The translations under genes were made by a program, and so were the position numbers. Of a stretch of 50,405 nt of DNA, positions 1-50,405 are shown piece by piece. The notes under the pieces are model-generated. The model had not been told where the DNA came from. It did not search any database and worked only from the letters and a program-made list of their open reading frames with translations. The DNA is from a virus: UHGV virus genome UHGV-0169486; one strand, given 5' to 3'. The stretch's first letter is position 1. Each line of letters begins with the position of its first letter.

Positions 1-95
1 TTGCTTGGCTTAATGCGTTTTCTTCGTTATAGAGCGTTTAAGGGCTTTTCACGAAATTAACCAAAACTGAGCGTAAAGTTTACGATCTGCTGGCT

Positions 96-284
96 GTGCA
101 TTGCCGGACGGGAGGTTATCAAATATCACTTATCATGCTTGCTGACAGGTTGGGAGTGAGTCGGCAAAGTGTTAAGCTAGCGATCCGATCTCTGGAACAG
201 GCCGGAGTAATAGCCATTTGCAGGAGTAAATTGCATGGACGCCAACAAGCTAACGTTTATGTCATCTTAAAAATCAAAAAATAG
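96..284 (+). CDS. small winged-helix DNA-binding protein (start uncertain, possibly truncated)
   Basis: ORF track; HTH-like segment LADRLGVSRQSVKLAIRSLEQAGVI; in-frame stop at 39-41, no in-frame ATG before GTG at 96. Confidence 0.3.
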   Translation: MHCRTGGYQISLIMLADRLGVSRQSVKLAIRSLEQAGVIAICRSKLHGRQQANVYVILKIKK

Positions 285-413
285 CCACCTGATAGCGCCT
301 CTGACGCAAGAAAGACACTGCACTCTTATAAGTGGGTTACGCGGTGGGATTTTGCGTTGTAGCGCGTTTTACGGGAAATAAATATACATTCTGTAAACAT
401 GAGGAATAACGTT

Positions 414-1532
414 ATGTCACAAAGAAAGATCAGCGATGAGGAATTAATCGCTGAACATAACAGCGGCCTGACGTATAAACAGATCGCTGAGAAGTACGGC
501 ATGGCAAAACGCAACGTCGAGCGCCTGGGCGCACGGCTGGCGAAACGCGGTTTAATATCCACGCGCCGCGCGCCGGGTTTTGGTGTCAATGGTGAATCAT
601 TGCTCGTTGATAAAGATGGCAATGTAATCATGCGCTGGATTAAAACGGCCCGTGACCGTGAGGAAATGGAAAGGCTAATGCAGGCAGCTTGTGACGCATT
701 TACGGAAGAAATGCCGCGCGAGGAAGCCGTGCCAGTGCCGGAAATTGATTTTCAGAAAAGCCTGGCCCTTTATCCGGTATTCGATCTGCATATCGGGGCG
801 CTTGCGCATAAAGCTGAATGCGGAGAAAGCTACGACACCGGGATCGCTGAACGCGTGTTAAATGACTTCTTTGACTACGCTGTAGGCGCTGCACCAACGT
901 CTGAAAAAGCTGTATTGCTTCTCGGCGGTGATGTGCTTCACACGGACGGGCTATTACCAGTGACGCCATCAAGTAATCACGTCTTAGATTGCGATTCACG
1001 CTACGCAAAACTTGTTTATGTGGCGATCCGGTCGGTCCGGCGTGCGGTGGGGAAAATGTTGTTAAACCATAAGGACGTCGAGATCCAGGTGTTATCCGGC
1101 AATCACGATCAGTCGGGGATGATTTGGCTACGTGCGGCGCTGGCGGCTTTTTACGAAGATGAACCGCGCGTAACGGTTGATGTGTCCCCTGCTATCGTCC
1201 ACCACACACAATACGGAAAAACATTCCTTGCTTACCACCACGGACACACCATCAAAAAACCAGAAACCTTACTTGCTGCCTGTGTTTCTGACTGGCGGGA
1301 GGATTTCGGTAAATCGTCGTCAGTTTACGCTCATTGCGGACACTGGCATCACCAGCGGCTGATTGAATCATCGTTAGGCGTTGTCGAGTATCACGGAACG
1401 TTAGCTGGCAAAGATGCTTACTCGACGAATGGCGGCTGGCGTTCACGGCGGCTGGCGGCGGTGATTATTTACAGCCCGGCTCATGGAGAAATTGGGCGCT
1501 TTGTTTATTACCCTGAATATTCCATTTTGTAA
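414..1532 (+). CDS. HTH domain fused to calcineurin-like metallophosphoesterase
   Basis: Motifs DLHIG, GGDVLHTDG, GNHD, HHGH, GHWHH in canonical order; N-terminal HTH LTYKQIAEKYGMAKRNVERL; ATG 414 has GAGGAA RBS (track start 399 lacks one). Confidence 0.75.
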   Translation: MSQRKISDEELIAEHNSGLTYKQIAEKYGMAKRNVERLGARLAKRGLISTRRAPGFGVNGESLLVDKDGNVIMRWIKTARDREEMERLMQAACDAFTEEMPREEAVPVPEIDFQKSLALYPVFDLHIGALAHKAECGESYDTGIAERVLNDFFDYAVGAAPTSEKAVLLLGGDVLHTDGLLPVTPSSNHVLDCDSRYAKLVYVAIRSVRRAVGKMLLNHKDVEIQVLSGNHDQSGMIWLRAALAAFYEDEPRVTVDVSPAIVHHTQYGKTFLAYHHGHTIKKPETLLAACVSDWREDFGKSSSVYAHCGHWHHQRLIESSLGVVEYHGTLAGKDAYSTNGGWRSRRLAAVIIYSPAHGEIGRFVYYPEYSIL

Positions 1533-1550
1533 ACATGAGGTAATGCCATA

Positions 1551-2972
1551 ATGATAACTGACCAAGTAAACTCATTGCGGCAGGAGCGCGAAGCGGCTGT
1601 TATAGGTGGCCTCCTGTTAGGCGGGCTTACTCCTAACGCGCAAGATGTTCTTGCTACACTCGATCCTGATGTATTCACTATTCCTCTGTACAGGCGCGCG
1701 TTCGAAATCATCAGGGCGCAAGCCAGAAACAGAAATCTTATCGACGCGTTATTGGTTGGTGATGAAATCGGTAACGAAAATTTCATACCGCTAATGCAAA
1801 CGGCGCGATCGTGTCCTTCTGCTGCCAACCTGAAAGGGTACGCGCAGCTACTACAGGAAGAACACCAGCGGCGGCAAATGCTGGAGCTAATGGAAGACGT
1901 TCGCTACAAGCTGGAAACGGGGACGCTTGAAGTTGTCAAAGAGACGATGAAAGATTTTGATTCCCGGTATTCAAAATTAAAGGTAACAAAAGATCAGATT
2001 ATCCCGGTGCTGTTGCGCGATGCTGTCCAGGAATACACGGAAGTGCTAAGTAAACGCATGGAGTGTGGCGTGAACTCTGACAACATCAAAACAGGGATTG
2101 ACCCACTCGACGAAATGTTAGGCGGCATTAACGCTACTGATCTGGTGCTTATCGCCGGACGCCCGGGGTCTGGTAAATCGGCGTTGGCGTTGGCAATTGC
2201 CCGCGCGGCGGCTGGACGCCAATACCCTGGCGGAGAAGGTCAGCGGGTCGGCGTTTTGCTGTTCACGCTTGAAATGTCGCTCGATCAGATGACTGAACGA
2301 GCTATCGCTGGCGCTGGGAATTTATCAACGGATTGCCTACGTAATCCGGTAAAACTGGATGACGAAGGATGGGCGCACGTTGCCCGGGGGATGAGCGCCC
2401 TTGCCGATCTCGATGTGTGGATTGTTGACGCATCGCAGTTAACGGTTGAGGAAATACGCGCCACCGTCGAACGGATGAAACAGGACCATCCTAATCTTGG
2501 AATGGTGATGATTGACTACATCGGGTTAATGAAACTGGCTAAGGCCGAACGTCATGATCTCGCCGTAGGGCAATTGTCGTGGTCATTGAAAATGATGGCG
2601 AAAGAGTTGCGCGTGCCAGTGGCGGCGCTGGCGCAATTATCCCGCCGCGTTGAAGAACGACCGAACAAGCGCCCGAACAATTCTGATCTGCGTGATTCCG
2701 GTAATCTTGAACAAGACGCAGACCGGATCATCATGGTCTACCGCGACGGCTACTACAACGAACAATCAGTTGCCCGCGAATACATGGAGATCATCGTTTC
2801 AAAAAACCGTTACGGGAAAACGGGGACTGTTTACCAGCGGTTTGACGATAACGGCAACATCATTCCATGCAACCAGGCTCGCGCGGCGTCCGCCTGCATC
2901 CAGTCAATGCAACAACGTCCGGCAGCAAGCCGATTCTCCACACGAAATAACCAGAATAACGCATCCTTTTAA
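1551..2972 (+). CDS. DnaB-family replicative helicase
   Basis: Walker A GRPGSGKS, DnaB-like N-terminal domain, RecA-like C-terminal domain; GAGG RBS. Confidence 0.85.
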   Translation: MITDQVNSLRQEREAAVIGGLLLGGLTPNAQDVLATLDPDVFTIPLYRRAFEIIRAQARNRNLIDALLVGDEIGNENFIPLMQTARSCPSAANLKGYAQLLQEEHQRRQMLELMEDVRYKLETGTLEVVKETMKDFDSRYSKLKVTKDQIIPVLLRDAVQEYTEVLSKRMECGVNSDNIKTGIDPLDEMLGGINATDLVLIAGRPGSGKSALALAIARAAAGRQYPGGEGQRVGVLLFTLEMSLDQMTERAIAGAGNLSTDCLRNPVKLDDEGWAHVARGMSALADLDVWIVDASQLTVEEIRATVERMKQDHPNLGMVMIDYIGLMKLAKAERHDLAVGQLSWSLKMMAKELRVPVAALAQLSRRVEERPNKRPNNSDLRDSGNLEQDADRIIMVYRDGYYNEQSVAREYMEIIVSKNRYGKTGTVYQRFDDNGNIIPCNQARAASACIQSMQQRPAASRFSTRNNQNNASF

Positions 2973-3051: not shown

Positions 3052-3609
3052 ATGAGCATTGAACTTGAAACAAAAGTTATCAATATCCTTGAACTGGACT
3101 GCATCGCAACAATGCACCAGCTACGCCAGAAAACCGGATTATCAGCGAAATATGACGAAGCCGGATGTTTGCCTGAGACAATTAAACACTTGATTGATAC
3201 TGGTATTGTCGAGCGTGTATATACATATTTCGGACCGCGCCGCAGATTATTGGGGTATCGAATTAAATATTTGTATGCACAACGTCGTGATCGTGTGGCG
3301 GCGTTATTTAGTGACTACAGCGTTAAGAAGCGTATGCGTGACATTAGCGCGGAAACTGGTATCCCGTGGAATTACCTGTCGCGCACGCTGCGTTTAATGG
3401 TACTTGATGAAACGCTTTGCATAGACACCAAAAAACACGGCCTTAACTTTTACTCACTGTTTAAACCTGGGCGCTTTGGTCACGCTAATGATCTCGCGTT
3501 TGATTTTGACAGCCGCCTGAATGAATACCGGAAAAATAACGGCCTGTTACCGGATAAACCAGTATTTGAGATCGAAAAACTTAACGGTGAAACGGGGTTA
3601 GAATTATGA
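3052..3609 (+). CDS. hypothetical protein
   Basis: ORF track (3016..3609); ATG 3052 preferred over upstream GTG; same operon as helicase. Confidence 0.5.
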   Translation: MSIELETKVINILELDCIATMHQLRQKTGLSAKYDEAGCLPETIKHLIDTGIVERVYTYFGPRRRLLGYRIKYLYAQRRDRVAALFSDYSVKKRMRDISAETGIPWNYLSRTLRLMVLDETLCIDTKKHGLNFYSLFKPGRFGHANDLAFDFDSRLNEYRKNNGLLPDKPVFEIEKLNGETGLEL

Positions 3610-3812
3610 GACGGGTAATCTTTTATTCAGTTGAAACGTTTGTCGACGATACGCGCGTTTATTATCCGTGGGAAGTATACGACGCAAAGGTGTATACACC
3701 GCCACTGATGCGGAAATATAAACACGTAAAATTTAACCGGGTTTTTGTGCCAATGCACGATGCATTGCGGGCGCTGCGTGGGGAATTGCGAAACACAATG
3801 CGGATTGTGTAA
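3606..3812 (+). CDS. hypothetical protein
   Basis: ORF track; ATGA start/stop overlap with upstream gene. Confidence 0.5.
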   Translation: MRRVIFYSVETFVDDTRVYYPWEVYDAKVYTPPLMRKYKHVKFNRVFVPMHDALRALRGELRNTMRIV

Positions 3813-3821
3813 GGGGGAATT

Positions 3822-4019
3822 ATGGACAAGGATTTAGAATTGACCGTGGAGGATTTAAGCACGATCGCGGAATACATGCGCGGCGATGATCCTGATAAGC
3901 CTGTCACGGTTGATATGAAAAGATTAAAGGAAAAATACATGACAAGCTCGCGGCTAATTTCTTTGCAGGCGATTATGTATGCGCGTGCTATATGGCGAAA
4001 TAGTAACGGTGTATCATGA
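3822..4019 (+). CDS. hypothetical protein
   Basis: ORF track; RBS AAGGGGG upstream of ATG. Confidence 0.5.
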   Translation: MDKDLELTVEDLSTIAEYMRGDDPDKPVTVDMKRLKEKYMTSSRLISLQAIMYARAIWRNSNGVS

Positions 4020-4447
4020 GGCAAATTAGATTTGAGATAGTCAACGACGCAGTGAAAGAAAATGCTATCAGGCAGATAAGAGAGATCCAGCCTGATAGCA
4101 AAAGCCCGCTGATAATCACCATTCAGGAGAAAACCCGCTCGCTAAGCCAAAATGCGTTGCTTTGGGCGCTGTTGACCGACATTAGCGATCAGGTTAATTG
4201 GTACGGTAAGAAGCTGTCGCCGGAAGACTGGAAAGCGGTATTCACTGCCGGACTTAAGAAATATGGCGTAGTCCCTAACCTGGATAAATCAGGCTTCGTT
4301 GTATTGGGAACGTCTACAAGTCGAATGAGTAAATCAGAATTCAGCGAACTAATCGAATTGATTTACTCGTTCGGCGCGGAACATGATGTTCAATGGTCGG
4401 GTGATACGAAATTAAACGAGGAATTTATAAAACGCTGGGGGCAATAA
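4016..4447 (+). CDS. ninB: NinB-like recombination protein
   Basis: Recalled similarity to lambda NinB (QERNRSLDQN / VFTAALK / GFVVIGQSTSRM equivalents); ATGA overlap with upstream gene. Confidence 0.8.
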   Translation: MRQIRFEIVNDAVKENAIRQIREIQPDSKSPLIITIQEKTRSLSQNALLWALLTDISDQVNWYGKKLSPEDWKAVFTAGLKKYGVVPNLDKSGFVVLGTSTSRMSKSEFSELIELIYSFGAEHDVQWSGDTKLNEEFIKRWGQ

Positions 4448-4623
4448 TGGCGCGTTATTACATGGCTAAACCTACCGGAATTTTGTATAAGGTTGATGGC
4501 GAATATGTTTATTACTTCCACAACCAGGCGCGGGAGTGGCGATTGTGTCACGCTCACTTTCAGCACGAAATAGAAAATCACCCTGAATATTTTATCAAAG
4601 TTGACAACGTAACTGTGGCGTAA
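4447..4623 (+). CDS. hypothetical small protein (58 aa, below track cutoff)
   Basis: Own translation MARYYMAKPTGILYKVDGEYVYYFHNQAREW...; start overlaps NinB stop (TAATG). Confidence 0.4.
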   Translation: MARYYMAKPTGILYKVDGEYVYYFHNQAREWRLCHAHFQHEIENHPEYFIKVDNVTVA

Positions 4624-4638
4624 TTGAGGATAAGCAAA

Positions 4639-5292
4639 ATGAATAAACTAAAAGCAATTGGCGTGATTAGCCATCGCACTAACCCTGAATGTTACCCATC
4701 GTTTGAGGTAACAACATGCCGCACAGAATATAATTTTGGATCATACTATTTATTGGGTGTCCGCGCTGACACTGGCGGCACTTATTCGGTTATGGCTGCA
4801 AGCTGGAAATTTGATAAATACGCTAATTTATCGAATAAGGATGATGACGGCATGAATAAAGAAAGTGAAATCATTGATGAATTAATCGAAGATGAACGCC
4901 ATGATTGCGAAACACAACAAGAAAAAACAGAATGGAAGCCAGGAGAAAAGCCGCCGTGCGGCGTGTGGCTTGATTGTTATTATCCTGATGGCTATTACAT
5001 TGGGATTGTAATGTTTAAGTTTATCGGTGATAAATACGGGGTATACACAGAAAAAGGCAGTATACAGAAAGAAAATGCTATTGAATGGGGTTTTTATAAT
5101 TATTATTTATACGTTGATCCGAAAGAAAAAGCACTGGCGCAAATTGCGTTTGCTCTGGCTACGAAGGTTATTGGTGAGGATGCGGCAGGAGAAATAAATT
5201 TCAATCGTGATAATGATTATTCGCGTGATTATCGCAATATGGCGCAAGCTATTATTGACGGATGTATCGGACACGTTGAATACACGGAATAA
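4639..5292 (+). CDS. hypothetical protein, AT-rich accessory gene
   Basis: ORF track (4624..5292); ATG 4639 with GAGGA RBS; AT-rich codon usage by eye; Cys-containing, no recognised domain. Confidence 0.55.
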   Translation: MNKLKAIGVISHRTNPECYPSFEVTTCRTEYNFGSYYLLGVRADTGGTYSVMAASWKFDKYANLSNKDDDGMNKESEIIDELIEDERHDCETQQEKTEWKPGEKPPCGVWLDCYYPDGYYIGIVMFKFIGDKYGVYTEKGSIQKENAIEWGFYNYYLYVDPKEKALAQIAFALATKVIGEDAAGEINFNRDNDYSRDYRNMAQAIIDGCIGHVEYTE

Positions 5293-5426
5293 TGGATAAA
5301 ACAGGGACAATCCTTCTTAGTCGCCCTGCCATCTGCCGGATGCTTGGTGGAATTAGCAGGGGAACATTTTATTTATGGCGTAAAAAATGGGAACGGAACG
5401 GAACTCCGTTCCCCTGTCTGGAATGA
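5292..5426 (+). CDS. AlpA-like small HTH protein (44 aa)
   Basis: Own translation MDKTGTILLSRPAICRMLGGISRGTFYLWRKKWERNGTPFPCLE; GISRGTFY..W....FP pattern typical of AlpA/excisionase-like HTH; TAATG coupling to upstream gene. Confidence 0.4.
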   Translation: MDKTGTILLSRPAICRMLGGISRGTFYLWRKKWERNGTPFPCLE

Positions 5427-5511
5427 TTAACGACATGAATAATCATTTGTAAAACAGCATGTTATGTTATCTTTGCTTTGGATTTTTGATATTTGGTCAC
5501 TATTTGGTACA

Positions 5512-5861: not shown

Positions 5862-7625
5862 TTAAACAATCTCGCTCAATTGCGCATCGGTCAATGCTTT
5901 GTGCCATACCCTGAAATTTCTAATGTGTCCAAAAAGATGTCGCACCCCCGACGTGGCTTGCCCGCCAAAACGGATTGACGTAGCACTGACTGCGAATACA
6001 TTGCCGCTTGGTTTGGTTGTATATTTACCGTTGCACACGGCATCGACCGAAAGATTCTGCTGCGCGCGAACACCAGCAATAAAGTGACGGCTTTCGGGCT
6101 GAATTAACGGTTGCACCATTCCTACGTTAGCCGCAATCTCACCCGTGCTAACAAATCCAAGCGATAAGTAATTATCATTACTCCTATTACCTCCAACATC
6201 AAAAATTCGAGGCGATTGGTTTGGCGGCGTACCCCAGTTTACGTGCACCTCGACCAGTGATGTGAACGGTAGGGATGATAGATTGTTTTCTGCGAAGATA
6301 TTGACCATATCGCTGGCGCGCGTTGTCGGTAATGTGCCGGAGATGATATATGAGGACGCCCCTATTCCTAGCTCAACTTGCGGTGTGGTTAGTTCGATAT
6401 AATCCCCGGCAGCATAACTACTCACTGGCGAGATCTGGAACTGTGCGTTAACCAATGCCGTGGTGGATTGCAGCATCACCACCGCGCGATTCCATCCGGT
6501 GACCTCGTCTCTCTCAACTTCTACCGTGATACGTTTCGCAGCGCCACCAGTTTTAGACACTGACAAGTCGCTAAGTTTAATGTATGCGTCGCCGGAGAAA
6601 GTCATACTACTCTGATCCGCACCCTCTGCAAAACGCACGCGCAGACGTACATCCTTGTCGGACCGGAATCGGCATGATGCCGTTACATATTTCTCGTCAC
6701 CAGACGTATCAAGACTGTTAGCCGCAGTTACGGAAGCCATATTAAACGCCGTATTTTTTCCTACACCATCGGCCACGATCACGCACTTACCGTACAGGAA
6801 GCCGAAGGCATCCGTGTTTGCAGTTGTCGTAACTGACGGCGAGCACCCCCAGCTTGATGGAGTGTTACCGTTTATAATGTAGTTAGTTCTGGTCCCTTCA
6901 ACCAGCAGCCCTTCTCGTTCAAAACGTGGTTCGTCAATGGCTGCTTCCTTAAACACACCGGATTTGTTTATATAAGTTGCTTTTGACGCGCGTTTAAATT
7001 TAACGATCTTGTCACCTGGTACTGTTGTTTCTTCTTCACCAATAACAATCTTTTTATAGGAAGGGGAAAACCCGGTAATCATGTCGAGAGAGTCGTTAAA
7101 CGGTATCCATACGTCCGGCAGCGGCTGCAAAACATACGCGTAAGGCTGCGCTGTCTGATTGGCGTATTCGCGGGCCTCGTCTCTGTATGTCTTAGCTGAA
7201 TCGGCGGCGCTTGTCGCTGTTGTTGCAGCGTTGGTTGCAGTGGTAGCTGATTGTGACGCTAATTTTGATGCTGAAATCACATCTTTGTTGTCGCTGAAAA
7301 ATTCGACGGCGTCAGCTATTTCTGATTCCTTGCCTTGATAGTAACGCAGTGTTTCGGCGACATCCTGAGCAAGACCATCTACAGAGATCGAGTCTGAAAG
7401 CAGGATGCTAAATTTAGTGCCAGCCGGAATAGCAGGACTTGCCGAGGGGGTTACTGATAAACTTGTTGCGCTTTTTACCTCTGTAATTGAAAAAATCTGC
7501 ACCGGATCGCTAATGGCAATAAGAGTGCAACCAACCCTGATCAGAGATAATGCGGCGTTGAATTCAGTCCCTGTCCCGGTAACTGTTTTTCCGCTAACGG
7601 CTATCGTGCCTGTTGTGTAAATCAT
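5862..7625 (-). CDS. side tail fiber / receptor-binding protein
   Basis: ORF track (5862..7679); ATG 7625 with AAGGAG RBS lies downstream of a TATAAT promoter; Thr/Gly-rich N-terminus, Ala/Thr/Ser-rich central segment, C-terminal lectin-like region. Confidence 0.8.
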   Translation of the reverse strand: MIYTTGTIAVSGKTVTGTGTEFNAALSLIRVGCTLIAISDPVQIFSITEVKSATSLSVTPSASPAIPAGTKFSILLSDSISVDGLAQDVAETLRYYQGKESEIADAVEFFSDNKDVISASKLASQSATTATNAATTATSAADSAKTYRDEAREYANQTAQPYAYVLQPLPDVWIPFNDSLDMITGFSPSYKKIVIGEEETTVPGDKIVKFKRASKATYINKSGVFKEAAIDEPRFEREGLLVEGTRTNYIINGNTPSSWGCSPSVTTTANTDAFGFLYGKCVIVADGVGKNTAFNMASVTAANSLDTSGDEKYVTASCRFRSDKDVRLRVRFAEGADQSSMTFSGDAYIKLSDLSVSKTGGAAKRITVEVERDEVTGWNRAVVMLQSTTALVNAQFQISPVSSYAAGDYIELTTPQVELGIGASSYIISGTLPTTRASDMVNIFAENNLSSLPFTSLVEVHVNWGTPPNQSPRIFDVGGNRSNDNYLSLGFVSTGEIAANVGMVQPLIQPESRHFIAGVRAQQNLSVDAVCNGKYTTKPSGNVFAVSATSIRFGGQATSGVRHLFGHIRNFRVWHKALTDAQLSEIV

Positions 7626-7655
7626 CGCAATGACTCCTTTGTTATTAGTTATAAT

Positions 7656-7684
7656 ATTATACCAACTGTATTTGCTCACACAAA
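7656..7684 (-). promoter_or_regulatory. sigma70-like promoter for side tail fiber gene
   Basis: Perfect -10 TATAAT with TTTGTG 17 nt upstream, read on minus strand. Confidence 0.4.
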
Positions 7685-7732
7685 ATATGCATATTATTAT
7701 TTCTATAAGATATTAAATGTTGGGGGAATATC

Positions 7733-8695
7733 ATGGGGCAAGGTTTATACATAGATCTTAATGATGGCCGTCCGGCGATGGAAATTACTTCAGGATTAAG
7801 AGCGCCGTCATATTGCGGATCGTTTGGGTCAATTCCCGCCGAAACCACAAGCTATACATTCACAATGCCAACCTGCTTCCCTGGTGGTAGTGACGGTTTT
7901 TTCTTTTCATTAAAGCCTGCAACTATAAAAGAAGTTTATCCAACTACTAATGTATGCTGGATCAGCAATGTTACTAAGTTAAACTCTACTCAATGGAAGG
8001 TAGATTTTGGTTATGCAAACGGGCCCGGATGGGAAGGTGATACCGTACTGGTTAGCGGTTTGTTTTTTGAAATAGGATACCCAAGCAATAGCGGAGCTGG
8101 TTTATATATAAGAGATTCAACTGATTTCACTACGATAACAACGAATTCTAATTTATTATGTTGCACTTACGCTGGGAACATTACGTTTACTGGGACTTAT
8201 AATTTGCCGTCTGGAACTGTGGTGGCGTTTGGTAGATGGGATGATCCTAATGTTGTTGTTGAAAGATCAGGGAACACCATAAAGTGTACAAGAGTCGCGC
8301 TAGGGAGTGATTACATCACCGTTGACGCAACTGTTAACATGGATTTAGTTGTATTTAGAAGGCAGACTCCTGCTGCTGGCAATGCTGGATTGGTAATGAG
8401 GAATGCATCCGGTCAGGTTGTGTTCTCAACGGCACAAAGGCCGTTTGTTTTTGGTGGTACATTTAACATGGCTAATGGTAATCAATATATAGGCAATGCA
8501 TTCGTTCCTATAGCAAGATACGGCGCGTTAACTGAGAAAAACATAAATATGTACTATTATTACTATTACGGCGCAATAAGATCAGGTGGATACATTAGAC
8601 CAAGCAGGGGGAGTCTGATAGTTGCAAGGACAAATGGGAGGCATGTAAACGCTATCGCTAACATTAATTACCCGCTGTTACCAGCAATGTATTGA
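7733..8695 (+). CDS. hypothetical beta-rich protein with three internal repeats; AT-rich opposite-strand accessory gene
   Basis: ORF track; GGGGGAA RBS; AT-rich with AGA/AGG codons; convergent with J; followed by bidirectional terminator. Confidence 0.6.
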   Translation: MGQGLYIDLNDGRPAMEITSGLRAPSYCGSFGSIPAETTSYTFTMPTCFPGGSDGFFFSLKPATIKEVYPTTNVCWISNVTKLNSTQWKVDFGYANGPGWEGDTVLVSGLFFEIGYPSNSGAGLYIRDSTDFTTITTNSNLLCCTYAGNITFTGTYNLPSGTVVAFGRWDDPNVVVERSGNTIKCTRVALGSDYITVDATVNMDLVVFRRQTPAAGNAGLVMRNASGQVVFSTAQRPFVFGGTFNMANGNQYIGNAFVPIARYGALTEKNINMYYYYYYGAIRSGGYIRPSRGSLIVARTNGRHVNAIANINYPLLPAMY

Positions 8696-46274: not shown

Positions 46275-46694
46275 TCAGAACGGGATATCGTCATCGAAGT
46301 CCATCGGCGGCGGATTATTCCCGTTATTATTCTGCTGCTGCGGCGGCGCTTTCTGCTGCTGGCCTTGCTGCTGGCCTTGTTGGTTAACGTTCATGAATTC
46401 AAATTCGTTAACCGCCACTTCTACCGCCGTCCCCTTAGTGCCGTCGTTCCGGTCATATTGCCGAACATCCAGGCGACCACTTACAACTATCTTTCCACCC
46501 TTGCGGATATGTGACGCTAATTTTTCCGCTCGCTCACCGAATACCAGGCAAGTGATCCACATCGTCCGCTTATTATCGCCGTAGCCATTCGTTACAGCTA
46601 ACGGAAAACTACCAATCGCCTTCCCGTTTTGCGTATAGCGTACTTCCATGTCGTTTCCGATATTCCCGCCAAGCGTGATTGAATTTAAACTCAT
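46275..46694 (-). CDS. ssb: single-stranded DNA-binding protein
   Basis: OB-fold-like N-terminus, Gln/Gly-rich linker, acidic C-terminal tail DFDDDIPF; TAATG coupling with erf. Confidence 0.85.
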   Translation of the reverse strand: MSLNSITLGGNIGNDMEVRYTQNGKAIGSFPLAVTNGYGDNKRTMWITCLVFGERAEKLASHIRKGGKIVVSGRLDVRQYDRNDGTKGTAVEVAVNEFEFMNVNQQGQQQGQQQKAPPQQQNNNGNNPPPMDFDDDIPF

Positions 46695-47335
46695 TAGCTC
46701 ATCTCCACATTAAGCTCTGCGATCCGGATGTCATAAACATCTTTTGCTTTAACTCGATGTTCCGATCCTTCCGGCAGTAATTTCCAGCATTTACCGAATA
46801 TTTCACGCAACTTGTTAGCGTCCGGCGCTTTCGCTGCTGCATCACAGAAACGCGCTAACACTTCATCAGGATTTGGCGGCGCTTTCTGCTGCTGCTGTTG
46901 TTGTTTTGGCTGGTTTTTCTGCTGTCTAGGCTGCTGGCCTGTCTGCTTACTGTAAGCATCAGTATCCGCGTCTTTTGCATCGTCTATGCAGAATAAACCG
47001 TTCAAAGCATATTTCCGCGCGTAACTTGATGTTGCTCCTGTTAGCTGGCTTGCATCCATTCCCTTCTTATTATCTTCCTCCCTTGCGTAAGCAGTTACCG
47101 CTATCGCGTCCTCACCGTCACTTAGTGTCGCCGTAGCTTTCACGTAATAGCGTTCGCCAATTAAGACGATTTCATCACTTACCGTCAGAGTGATATTTTG
47201 AAGCAGTGGTTTAACAGCCTCTAAAATATCTTCTGCCGAACGATAATTATAACCGCCAAAATTATTGCGCTGACTTTTCGGCGCATTCAGCGTCTGCTGA
47301 ATAGTCCACAGCTTTTTATGTAATTCTGTTTTCAC
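46694..47335 (-). CDS. erf: ERF-family single-strand annealing recombinase
   Basis: Recalled similarity to P22 Erf (LNAPK, YRS.EDILE.VKPLL, DEIVLIG.RYYVKATAT, GATSSYARKY, DDAKDADT); GTG start with GAGGGAGA RBS. Confidence 0.85.
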   Translation of the reverse strand: MKTELHKKLWTIQQTLNAPKSQRNNFGGYNYRSAEDILEAVKPLLQNITLTVSDEIVLIGERYYVKATATLSDGEDAIAVTAYAREEDNKKGMDASQLTGATSSYARKYALNGLFCIDDAKDADTDAYSKQTGQQPRQQKNQPKQQQQQQKAPPNPDEVLARFCDAAAKAPDANKLREIFGKCWKLLPEGSEHRVKAKDVYDIRIAELNVEMS

Positions 47336-48063: not shown

Positions 48064-48675
48064 TTATGGCAGGTTTACGATCTTCGCGTCCACCACCACG
48101 CCTATGATTTTCGATTCAGGATTCATGGGGATTGGTGGATACAGCGGGTTAAGCGAACGTAAAAGCCTTTGACCTCCATCAATAATCAACTGTTTAAACG
48201 TCGGTATTTGCCCTTCCTCAAGCTGTGCTATAACCAGCTTTCCATCGATAGCTGGCGCGTGTGGGTCAACAAGTATCATCGTCCCGGCAGGGATGCTCAA
48301 CCCCTGCGGCGCGTTCATTGATTCACCTTTAGCAACCAGCCAGTAACTATCATCTGAACAAATAACGCTAGTCGTAACGTGTGGTAATGTTGATCGCCTT
48401 GTATCTTCCATATTGTTTACTGTGTCCTTCCAGTCAACAACCGGGTAACTGCCTAAATCACGCTGCGGCGCTCCCGGTAACGTGTTAGAAACAGAATCAT
48501 CAATGACCATTCCATCATGGGTAACAGTGAACTGCCGACGACCAAGTGCCCGCATAATCCGCGCAATATCTTCAAGATTTGGCTCGCGGCGACCGTTAAG
48601 CCAGTGTGACAGGCCGCCTTTAGTTATCCCCATGAGATCCGCGAGTGAATCCTGGCTCATGCCTTGCGCTCGCAT
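48064..48675 (-). CDS. CI-like repressor (HTH plus LexA/S24 peptidase domain); 5' end possibly frameshifted
   Basis: HTH SQDSLADLMGITKGGLSHWLNG; S24 region with GESM and Lys; annotated ATG lacks RBS and truncates helix 1. Confidence 0.7.
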   Translation of the reverse strand: MRAQGMSQDSLADLMGITKGGLSHWLNGRREPNLEDIARIMRALGRRQFTVTHDGMVIDDSVSNTLPGAPQRDLGSYPVVDWKDTVNNMEDTRRSTLPHVTTSVICSDDSYWLVAKGESMNAPQGLSIPAGTMILVDPHAPAIDGKLVIAQLEEGQIPTFKQLIIDGGQRLLRSLNPLYPPIPMNPESKIIGVVVDAKIVNLP

Positions 48676-48874
48676 GAGCTGCTTTGCTAAGTCATACCAT
48701 TTGTTTTCATGTCGCTACCCTATAACCTCAAAAGTTTGATACAAGTCACAAAATGTATTTTTCAAAGCCTTGATTTAAAAACTCCATTCTGTAAACTTGC
48801 AGACAAGGTAAGGCCATAGTTGCAAAGACGCAAAAAAAAAGATAACGGAATAGCACAAAAAGGCGCATACCTCA

Positions 48875-48908
48875 TGCTCTTTAAAAATCCGGTGTCGCTG
48901 CGAAGCGA
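48875..48908 (+). promoter_or_regulatory. nutR-like site (boxA TGCTCTTTAAAAA plus hairpin TCGCT-GCGA-AGCGA)
   Basis: boxA-like sequence and tetraloop hairpin in PR leader, upstream of first rightward gene. Confidence 0.5.
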
Positions 48909-49017
48909 AAAACAAATATCACGCAACGGCGGGATCTGTTGAGCGGTCAGTCACTGCTATCTAATGCTAATGGGATGCCCGCCCGCGCGTTCACTCTAAC
49001 CATAGGAGAAAAACAAG

Positions 49018-49272
49018 ATGAGTATGCACATGATGAATGAAGCATGGAACGTAAAACTTAACAGCCCGATCCAAAAACTTGTCTTAATTGCGTTTGCAGA
49101 AAAGGCAGACAACAAAGGCCGCGCACATGCTTCACGCGAAGAGATCGCAAAAGTGTGCGAACTGCCACTGCATACTACTGTTGACGCATTAAATTCATTG
49201 ATCCGCAAAGGATTCATTAAACGCGCTGACGAATACGGCGACATTTATGACATTGCATTGCCGGAGGAATGA
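49018..49272 (+). CDS. winged-helix DNA-binding protein, first gene of rightward operon
   Basis: ORF track; AGGAG RBS; winged-helix-like segment. Confidence 0.6.
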   Translation: MSMHMMNEAWNVKLNSPIQKLVLIAFAEKADNKGRAHASREEIAKVCELPLHTTVDALNSLIRKGFIKRADEYGDIYDIALPEE

Positions 49273-49275
49273 TCT

Positions 49276-50328
49276 ATGAAATGGTTTAAGCATGATAGCG
49301 ATGCAAACCGCGATGAAAAACTTCAAAACGTTTTATTAGATTATGGCCTGGAAGGGTACGGGCTTTATTGGTATTGCCTAGAACTAATAACTTATGACGT
49401 AGATCAGCACAATCTAACTTTTGACCTACGACATGACGCAAGAATAATTGCGCGAAACGTCGGATCTACTGAAAAACGTATAGAAGAAATGATGAAATAC
49501 TTCATCGAAATTGGTTTGTTTGAATGTTCTCAAGGCCACATAACTTGTTTAAAGTTATTGAAAAGGCTGGACCAATCAATGACTTCTAAAAGCGCTTACA
49601 GGGCCGCCATAAACACAGCGAAGGAGCAATTAACATTAGAAAAGTTAATCAATCCAACACAAAAAGGTCATGACCGGGTCATGACCAGGTCAGGAAAGGG
49701 TCATGAATTAGAATTAGAAGTAGAAAAAGAAAGAGAAAAAGATATATACACTTCGTGTATTGTCGAAAATGAACAAAAAATGGTCAATCAGGATGGCGTA
49801 AACGAAGCGGCATTGCGTTGCCTGGCCTTCTACAACGACAAGGCAGGATGCAAATGTCGTGATGCTAAGCCATTCGTAGAACTACTGACAGAAACAAAAA
49901 CACGTAAAGCGTATACGGAGGATGAGATCACATTAGTGATTGAGTGGGCTTTAACGCAATGGCGTAGCCGTGGTGGAACACCTAAGCCTATCAACATTTG
50001 CCGGGTAACTAAGTTTGATGGGTATTTGGCTGATGCTGAACAATGGCGCAAGCTATCAGCTACTGTAAACGCCGCCGACGTAGTGGAAGCATTTAACAGC
50101 ACGTTTGATGGCCTGTTACCACCTGCTGAACTTGATCGGGATCTGGAACGTAAAATTTATGCGTTCTCTGACTACCTGAAAGATAAAAGCGTCAAAGGCT
50201 TTATCAGCTACTTCGAAGCGTTCAAAAATACGGCCTCAGATTTTTACTTCGGCAATGGCTTCACTGCGACACTAGATTTCTTACTAAAACCAAAAACGCT
50301 ACGCGACACCCGCGCTGGCGCTCTTTGA
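49276..50328 (+). CDS. replication initiator / replisome organizer
   Basis: N-terminal WFKHD...GLEGYGLYWYCLEL motif typical of phage replisome-organizer N-domain; iterons plus AT-rich tract inside gene. Confidence 0.75.
   Translation: MKWFKHDSDANRDEKLQNVLLDYGLEGYGLYWYCLELITYDVDQHNLTFDLRHDARIIARNVGSTEKRIEEMMKYFIEIGLFECSQGHITCLKLLKRLDQSMTSKSAYRAAINTAKEQLTLEKLINPTQKGHDRVMTRSGKGHELELEVEKEREKDIYTSCIVENEQKMVNQDGVNEAALRCLAFYNDKAGCKCRDAKPFVELLTETKTRKAYTEDEITLVIEWALTQWRSRGGTPKPINICRVTKFDGYLADAEQWRKLSATVNAADVVEAFNSTFDGLLPPAELDRDLERKIYAFSDYLKDKSVKGFISYFEAFKNTASDFYFGNGFTATLDFLLKPKTLRDTRAGAL
49666..49755 (+). other. putative origin of replication (iterons plus AT-rich region)
   Basis: Four GGTCATGA-type repeats at exact 11-bp spacing (49666, 49677, 49688, 49699) followed by AT-rich tract, inside initiator gene. 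Confidence 0.6.
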
Positions 50329-50405
50329 CTACCAAGCTTCACAAAAACCCAAAATAACCCACTTAAACGCTCCCCTAACGCGATAAAACATATCAAGTGC
50401 TATAC

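Follow-up and report, generated by a model that had tools for sequence, protein, structure and literature searches.

A helix-turn-helix–metallophosphoesterase of the T1 gp16 family in the early operon of an mEp021-like coliphage, and its possible role as a DNA nuclease

The stretch of viral DNA analysed here, the 50,405-nucleotide UHGV virus genome UHGV-0169486 (the window, meaning the whole stretch at its full length), comes from an mEp021-like temperate coliphage. Between the genes for an O-like replication initiator and a DnaB-family helicase it carries a gene for a helix-turn-helix (HTH) domain fused to a calcineurin-like metallophosphoesterase (MPE). An earlier note, made from the letters alone, had described a 372-residue protein with an N-terminal HTH and the full set of calcineurin-like motifs. 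This description holds, since all of the motifs listed are found and the HTH is supported in three ways, by Pfam, by the relatives of the protein and by an AlphaFold2 model. The gene belongs to a large phage family which includes gp16 of T1 and Bas01_0050 of a BASEL phage, and we put at about one half the probability that its product acts as a nuclease, namely a DNA phosphodiesterase dependent on Mn2+ or Mg2+. The gene and its parts are as follows.

414..1532, + strand: HTH–MPE gene, 372 residues, member of the PHROG 704 / T1 gp16 / Bas01_0050 family
414..563, + strand: N-terminal three-helix HTH domain, residues 1-50 (weak Pfam matches, matches of relatives, AlphaFold2 helices)
564..749, + strand: family-specific beta-hairpin, residues 55-77, with conserved G69 and W75, and linker helix, residues 80-97
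750..1529, + strand: MPE core, residues 113-372, with motifs I-V (invariant columns, fold matches)
783-791, + strand: D124-L-H126, motif I
927-947, + strand: G172-D173-V-L-H176-T-D178, of the GDxxH form (D173)
945-1004, + strand: conserved loop, residues 178-197, VTPxSGHxLDxDxR
1098-1109, + strand: G229-N-H-D232
1236-1247, + strand: H275-H-G-H278
1338-1352, + strand: G309-H-W-H-H313
1395-1451, + strand: conserved loop, residues 328-346, KDAYxxxGGW

The open reading frame (ORF) listing of the window places the 372-residue frame on the + strand at 414..1532. A second in-frame ATG, at 399, would lengthen the product to 377 residues; the start at 414 is preferred, having in its favour the GAGGA at 401-405 and the fact that the N-termini of all homologues align with it. 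Pfam matches to HTH models on the window protein itself (residues 10-55) are weak and sub-threshold, with E about 2e-3, whilst those of its relatives are stronger and include Sigma70_r4_2 (1.5e-9), GerE (2.4e-8) and HTH_23. In the AlphaFold2 model the helices of this domain span residues 8-16, 21-28 and 32-44. The HTH is basic (pI 9.9) and is the least conserved part of the protein, with a mean identity of 24% as against 37% in the core. The N-terminal extension is nonetheless a feature of the family, since motif I is preceded by 99 residues or more in every one of the 45 relatives aligned.

The metal-binding motifs of the calcineurin-like superfamily (DxH, GD, GNH(D/E), H and GHxH) are all present. 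In an alignment of the 45 relatives, which are 24-57% identical, D124, H126, G172, D173, N230, H231, H276, G309 and H312 are invariant, and H176, D178, G229, D232, H278 and H310 are kept in 90% or more of them. Judged from this alignment, the motif set is far beyond chance, and the metal site is real and under selective maintenance. The invariance of the catalytic residues across the relatives argues for an active enzyme. In Pfam, the window protein has no match to Metallophos at E <= 1, and among the 45 relatives 11 match PF00149 (best 2.7e-5) and six match PF12850. The most conserved stretches of the family are the two loops listed above, residues 178-197, which follow motif II, and residues 328-346, with mean identities of 54% and 49%, respectively, compared with 37% for the core. 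Both have a pLDDT below 50 in the AlphaFold2 model. They are good candidates for contacting a substrate or a partner, and may become ordered only upon substrate binding, partner binding or oligomerisation.

The AlphaFold2 model, built from 27 sequences (pLDDT 76, pTM 0.69), has the order HTH, beta-hairpin and helix, and then MPE core. A Foldseek search of the PDB with this model gave the Mre11–DNA complex of M. jannaschii as the top match (E 8e-7), followed at low TM-scores by proteins of the YfcE/Vps29 type, Rv0805, PolD DP1 and LpxH. The fold-comparison figures are 14.2 for MJ0936, 14.0 for SbcD, 13.0 for the small subunit of Pol delta, 12.7 for PolD DP1, 12.4 for Mre11, 12.3 for LpxH and 11.7 for Rv0805. 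The MPE fold predicted by the model is secure, and at the level of the subfamily there is no more than a mild lean towards the branch of nucleases and polymerase subunits. A search of PDB sequences with the window protein returned marginal HTH matches only, and a family profile found no significant match there for the MPE part, the best being the Mre11/SbcD of T. maritima at E 0.4-1.7. NCBIfam, including its SbcD/Mre11 models, gave no match at E <= 1.

The signatures of the protein had been likened to those of Mre11/SbcD or of cyclic-nucleotide phosphodiesterases. The first likeness stands at the level of the fold, with SbcD, Mre11 and PolD DP1 among the best matches, and neither stands as an assignment, there being no hidden Markov model (HMM) match to SbcD/Mre11 or to CpdA/Icc. 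What the protein shares with Mre11/SbcD is a nuclease core of the MPE type and its set of motifs, motif II being of the GDxxH form in both. Unlike them, it has an N-terminal HTH and two family-specific loops in place of a capping domain. Membership of Mre11/SbcD was rejected because the protein lacks both a capping domain and a Rad50/SbcC partner and gave no match to an HMM of that family. The only ORF of at least 120 residues in the window with a Walker A motif is DnaB, and the ORFs scanned in the early region encode Erf, SSB, a methylase, NinG, Q, the repressor and the initiator. Membership of the class III cyclic-nucleotide phosphodiesterases (CpdA/Icc) was likewise set aside, as these gave neither a model match nor the closest structural neighbour. 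Two phage families were rejected on profile comparison: that of Bxb1 gp47 and L5 gp54 (PHROG 221), with an hhalign probability of 8.6% over motifs III-V only, and that of T5 A1, with a probability of 12.6% over 20 columns around GNHD..WL.

The family to which the protein does belong is widespread. The match to PHROG 704 ("DNA repair exonuclease") covers residues 4-368 (E 6e-137). T1 gp16 (ORF16, YP_003929) is 57% identical to the window protein and Bas01_0050 is a full-length orthologue (53% identity, E 3e-146); both share with it the complete architecture of HTH, hairpin and MPE and all of the catalytic residues. By these alignments the window protein is one more member of a catalogued, biochemically uncharacterised family. 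Homologues were found by tblastn in 2041 phage records, with identities of 54-67% in the Drexlerviridae (T1-like) and about 38-45% in the Guernseyvirinae (Jersey/K1H-like), and the range reaches phages of Vibrio, Rhodobacter, Ruegeria, Roseobacter and Thermus, down to 27%. A HMMER search over 1.84 billion cluster representatives gave 4307 at E <= 1e-3, mostly of 370-420 residues among the matches listed. The matches of a profile-based protein search were dominated by T1-like phages, and three distant members provided further genomic context. In the Drexlerviridae the gene is present in 508 of 522 genomes and has been described as a persistent core gene (PMC13164509). It also occurs in 35 of 5426 complete E. 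coli genomes, as a single copy in each and always adjoining a helicase gene. The labels given to family members in the databases are inconsistent, and include hypothetical protein, phosphoesterase, oxidoreductase, DNA polymerase II, Rrf2 regulator and winged HTH (wHTH) protein.

The settings of the gene are more varied than its sequence. In most other phages it lies away from replication genes, near genes for lysis or nucleotide metabolism. In T1, Stevie and Bas01 it follows genes for a SNF2 helicase and a VRR-NUC protein (and, in T1 and Stevie, Dam) and stands just ahead of the lysis genes. In K1H and Jersey-like phages it is part of a small island within the tail module, and in RcExplorer, a Vibrio phage (49E33-1), Yersinia phage 636 and freshwater metagenomic phages it adjoins lysozyme or holin genes. 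A HAD_PNKP phosphatase gene and a P-loop kinase gene lie directly 3' of it in K1H and Yersinia phage 636, and in Thermus phage Lalka27b the order is MPE, an NT5C-like HAD protein and a deoxynucleoside monophosphate (dNMP) kinase. Further neighbours include a dATP/dGTP diphosphohydrolase, an HD phosphohydrolase, DNA methylases, ThyX and RNR. The company kept by the family elsewhere is that of nucleotide and DNA metabolism. The window copy differs from those of the Drexlerviridae, where the gene stands alone just upstream of the lysis cassette, in lying between the initiator and DnaB genes of a temperate phage, inside the replication operon. HNH genes were also seen to adjoin the family gene in T1, Bas01, a Vibrio phage and freshwater contigs.

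The possibility that the protein is a nuclease, one of two functions proposed in the earlier note, has emerged as the better supported of the two, on account of the fold matches to SbcD, Mre11 and PolD DP1 and of a toxic orthologue described as targeting nucleic acids. This orthologue is Bas01_0050, a putative nucleic acid-targeting phosphoesterase which is toxic in E. coli when expressed alone, and in which missense or frameshift mutations were found in escapers of phage Bas1 from the DRT7/UG10 reverse-transcriptase defence; in parallel, lambda escapers of DRT7 carry mutations in gam (bioRxiv 10.64898/2026.02.16.706125). Because frameshift escapers exist, Bas01_0050 is dispensable in the laboratory. 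In Bas1 the gene thus does harm to the host and has a functional connection with DNA metabolism.

The closest parallels in behaviour are found amongst phage MPEs of other families. T5 A1, a predicted metallophosphatase, is both necessary and sufficient for degradation of host DNA and is mutated in escapers of the retron Ec67. Like the family described here it is an MPE that a phage makes early as a stand-alone protein; it is toxic to E. coli and mutated in escapers of a defence based on a reverse transcriptase, and it is tied to a DNA-binding function and to a dNMP-metabolising neighbour, as in the family of the window protein. On these likenesses A1 is a probable functional analogue, albeit one of 556 residues which hhalign aligns only around the GNHD motif, and whose DNA-binding function resides in a separate protein, A2, rather than in a fused HTH. 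The mycobacteriophage A10ZJ24 gp48 is an early phosphodiesterase which degrades DNA in vitro, be it linear, circular or genomic, and in vivo breaks down the genome of the host, and which is needed for replication of the phage DNA in M. tuberculosis (PMC12287305). Bxb1 gp47, L5 gp54 and A10ZJ24 gp48 differ from the window protein in having about 255 residues and no N-terminal HTH, and in belonging to PHROG 221 rather than 704. Bxb1 gp47 is in addition the excision cofactor of a serine integrase, a role of which there is no indication in the window protein. By analogy, the window protein would work most like T5 A1 and the mycobacteriophage MPE. In passing, in the RefSeq entry for Bxb1 (NC_002656, 6876-7788) the name recombination directionality factor is given to gp46, and gp47 is called a metallo-phosphoesterase, whereas in the literature gp47 is the recombination directionality factor; the label appears to be shifted by one gene.

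From these comparisons we infer DNA as the substrate, the host genome as the target and DNA binding as the role of the HTH. The enzyme would be kept on DNA by the HTH and the hairpin that follows, and contact with the substrate would fall to the two conserved loops surrounding the metal site; the products of hydrolysis would carry 5'-phosphates. Expression would be early, from the rightward operon shared with the initiator and the P22-type helicase. The target would probably be the host chromosome, DNA ends and intermediates, or both, and phage DNA synthesis would be aided indirectly, through takeover of the host and supply of nucleotides. In the mEp021-like group the gene looks like a cassette set between initiator and helicase, with one copy of a duplicated translation-initiation sequence on either side.

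Several considerations weigh against a DNA nuclease. The analogues that have been characterised come from other families, with hhalign probabilities of 8.6% for Bxb1 gp47 and 12.6% for T5 A1. Destruction of the host chromosome is less expected of a temperate phage. The frameshift escapers mean that the orthologue cannot be an obligatory replication factor. The AlphaFold2 model is of moderate quality only (pLDDT 76), and leaves the two best-conserved loops unplaced. Finally, the HAD and kinase neighbours could equally fit the healing of nucleic-acid ends or the chemistry of nucleotide pools.

End healing is the first alternative to which these neighbours lead. The MPE would strip broken RNA or DNA of 2',3'-cyclic phosphates, 3'-phosphates or other blocking groups and, in partnership with a 3'-phosphatase and a 5'-kinase, repair damage done by host nucleases, in a way that recalls the T4 Pnkp pathway or the phosphatase domain, likewise an MPE, of bacterial Pnkp. 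The gene order in K1H and Yersinia phage 636, in which a PF25109 phosphatase and a P-loop kinase come straight after the MPE gene, speaks for such a partnership, as do the HAD/NT5C-like protein and dNMP kinase that follow it in Lalka27b and the orthology of the HAD and kinase pair in T1, K1H and phage 636. Furthermore, in Drexlerviridae that lack the SH3 gene, genes for a polynucleotide kinase or a dNMP kinase are the commonest downstream (PMC13164509). However, homologues of HAD_PNKP and of the kinase were searched for in the window phage and none was found, nor is a ligase present; in T1 the pair lies about 35 kb away from gp16; there is no detectable similarity to Pnkp; and the toxicity of the orthologue when expressed alone fits a destructive enzyme better than one of repair. 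We therefore consider end healing unlikely.

The pair itself merits description. The genes annotated as polynucleotide kinase in K1H, Yersinia phage 636 and T1 (ORF64) encode solely a PNKP phosphatase domain of the HAD type (PF25109), and each is followed by a separate P-loop kinase, with an HNH gene between the two in T1. The pair resembles a split Pnkp and is orthologous in the three phages, at the following positions.

T1, 4948-5478 and 5962-6534: HAD/P-loop pair
K1H, 7128-8167: HAD/P-loop pair
Yersinia phage 636, 5723-6781: HAD/P-loop pair

The second function put forward in the earlier note was the degradation of a nucleotide second messenger as an anti-defence measure. Broadly stated, the protein would be a small-molecule phosphodiesterase, acting on cyclic mono-, di- or oligonucleotides or on derivatives of ADP-ribose, or else remodelling the pools of dNTPs and dNMPs. 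Nucleotide-metabolism neighbours suit the latter variant, as stated above. The fused DNA-binding HTH, conserved across the family, is difficult to accommodate in either, and there is no HMM match to CpdA/Icc or to any defence or anti-defence model; PADLOC gave the window protein marginal wHTH matches only, at E 0.03-0.05. The phage enzymes known to degrade such signals have other folds, Acb1 being a 2H phosphoesterase and Apyc1 a metallo-beta-lactamase. Neither the persistence of the gene as part of the Drexlerviridae core, which is unlike that of typical accessory anti-defence genes, nor the position of the window copy outside any accessory or anti-defence region favours the proposal, which we regard as rather improbable.

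The remaining alternatives turn on the place of the gene in the genome. The window holds the whole genome, circularly permuted and about 50.4 kb long, of a temperate coliphage of the mEp021-like (mEpimmI) group, since its two ends are contiguous in related phages: 48064..50405 joined to 1..42 is collinear with positions 1..2384 of Escherichia phage MagusPhagus. The DNA of the region is 84-92% identical to that of MagusPhagus and of the phages mEp010, mEp013, mEp021, mEp044, mEp515 and mEp554; the paper describing the mEpimmI group does not mention the MPE gene. The neighbouring genes are these.

48064..48675, - strand: CI-like repressor, just before position 1 on the circle
49276..50328, + strand: O-like replication initiator (replisome organiser), 350 residues, with matches to Lin1244_N and to the PHROG for O-like replication initiation, upstream of the MPE gene across the junction
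96..284, + strand: small MarR-like wHTH ORF, 62 residues (Pfam MarR_2, E 2e-6)
1551..2972, + strand: DnaB-family replicative helicase (Pfam DnaB_C, 8.8e-75), orthologue of P22 gp12 with 56% identity by tblastn

The rightward early operon thus runs from the O-like initiator through the small wHTH ORF, the MPE, the DnaB helicase, a MarR/Ren-like protein and NinB to further genes. The DnaB-like gene starts 18 nt downstream of the MPE gene, the interval contains no promoter-like or terminator-like site, and the two are co-transcribed. The placing of the MPE gene between a replisome organiser and a DnaB-like helicase is therefore right for the helicase and right for the organiser when the molecule is read as a circle, the organiser being encoded at the other end of the window. 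The real initiator is that at 49276..50328, and the 62-residue ORF at 96..284 is neither the organiser nor part of the enzyme. This small ORF has no start codon that would convince for the full wHTH domain, and the segment that holds it (43-265) has no counterpart in MagusPhagus.

The MPE precedes DnaB in each of the 21 mEp-like relatives examined and in all 35 of the E. coli prophages. On these counts, and with 2041 phage records for the family, the gene is not atypical. The slot upstream of the MPE varies in the mEp group and the E. coli prophages, where it may hold a Zn-ribbon/T5orf172 protein, Ant/KilAC, BRO or, as in the window, a small wHTH, whereas the MPE–dnaB pair is constant in the mEp group, with an HNH gene sometimes between the two. 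In mEp021 the MPE gene is flanked by two genes resembling those of mobile nucleases (3518-5005 and 6159-6662; also loci L022 and L024): gp12 has five DUF4379 Zn fingers, CapR and T5orf172, and gp10 is the HNH gene inserted between MPE and DnaB. The window phage itself encodes Erf, SSB, NinB and NinG/Rap (46275..47335, - strand; 4016..4447, + strand), and no dedicated recombination exonuclease of the RecE or lambda Exo type, an activity that the MPE might conceivably supply, turned up among the early-region ORFs scanned.

The position had also been taken for that of a helicase loader, and this interpretation falls away when the module is compared with that of P22. In P22-like phages gene 18, for the initiator, and gene 12 are adjacent with nothing between them, both being annotated under the same tblastn match, and because the initiator gene directly abuts the helicase gene a module of this type has no loader slot. 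The window module resembles that of P22 in its helicase, orthologous to gp12, in its O-like initiator and in the absence from the window of an AAA+ loader, and differs from it by the insertion of the MPE gene (plus an HNH gene in some relatives). Loader families (DnaC/IstB AAA+, lambda P and DnaD/G39P-like) gave no match in Pfam, PHROG or NCBIfam, and the MPE has no Walker A motif. The family is found mostly in phages that lack DnaB, and helicases of the P22 gp12 type are present where the MPE is absent; the helicases of T1 are of the DUF3987 and SNF2/ResIII types. With no loader signature, no co-occurrence with DnaB and P22 modules that do without the protein, a helicase loader was rejected.

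A broader role at the replisome, in which the protein would be a loader, a scaffold or an accessory nuclease coupling the initiator to the DnaB-type helicase, in the way that MPE-fold B subunits serve archaeal and eukaryotic polymerases, PolD DP1 among them, would suit the gene order and the structural matches. It meets the same difficulties, however. A helicase 56% identical to that of the window is encoded in P22 modules in which initiator and helicase genes abut without such a protein. Most family members are encoded near lysis, tail or nucleotide genes by phages lacking a DnaB-type helicase, no AAA+ or loader-family signature is present, and frameshift mutants of the orthologue are viable. 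Moreover, a scaffold would not need intact catalytic residues. We judge a role of this kind very unlikely. Least credible of all is a transcription regulator whose HTH binds phage promoters, for example as an activator of late or lysis genes in T1-like phages, with the MPE as sensor or accessory: the N-terminal domain does resemble HTHs of sigma-70 region 4 and of the LuxR type, and the gene is upstream of or near the lysis cassette in T1, Stevie, Bas01, RcExplorer, Vibrio 49E33-1, freshwater contigs and Yersinia 636, but the window gene is far from the lysis genes of a phage that possesses a Q-like antiterminator, the HTH is the least conserved part of a protein whose catalytic residues are invariant, and the toxicity of the orthologue and its link with nucleic-acid metabolism would be left unexplained.

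The manner in which the MPE gene came to stand ahead of dnaB may be reflected in a short direct repeat of 18 nt, CATT[C/T]TGTAAACATGAGG, which flanks the MPE ORF.

387..404, + strand: left copy, CATTCTGTAAACATGAGG, holding the Shine-Dalgarno sequence of the MPE gene
1523..1540, + strand: right copy, CATTTTGTAAACATGAGG, in which the MPE gene ends (final three codons and stop) and which provides the DnaB gene with its Shine-Dalgarno sequence

The 13-nt core of the repeat occurs twice, against 0.08 occurrences expected by chance, and a variant, TGTAAAC[C/A][G/T]GAGG...ATG, forms the translation-initiation region of both genes and is kept in 21 of the 21 relatives examined. The repeat looks like the scar or linker of a cassette set ahead of the helicase gene, and may serve as a linker or boundary sequence for cassette exchange. 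The MPE gene shows no sign of recent foreign origin, since its GC content (about 0.51) is close to that of dnaB (0.48-0.57).

The window copy is in itself ordinary: its family counts members in over 2000 sequenced phages and spans about 4300 protein clusters. The importance lies with the family, a near-universal core gene of T1-like phages with an orthologue that is toxic to E. coli and mutated in escape from DRT7. It is attractive, if speculative, to consider that the family represents a host-takeover nuclease of the T1 type, the counterpart of T5 A1, which would degrade or damage the host chromosome early in infection and so feed the salvage of dNMPs. Its activity, or the DNA ends or disturbance of RecBCD that result, would then be sensed by DRT7/UG10, in parallel with lambda Gam, and mEp021-like phages would have built the gene, as a cassette, into their replication operon, with the initiator gene on one side and the helicase gene on the other. 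This combination of proposals is tentative, and clearly less probable than nuclease activity as such. If true, an abundant, unnamed core gene of the Drexlerviridae, the Guernseyvirinae and many marine phages would gain both a function and a role as a defence trigger. Were the protein shown to be a DNA nuclease and its target found, the uninformative database labels 'DNA repair exonuclease', 'oxidoreductase', 'DNA polymerase II' and 'Rrf2 regulator' could be replaced, and this would explain how T1-like phages take over or degrade the DNA of their hosts, and what it is that DRT7 senses.

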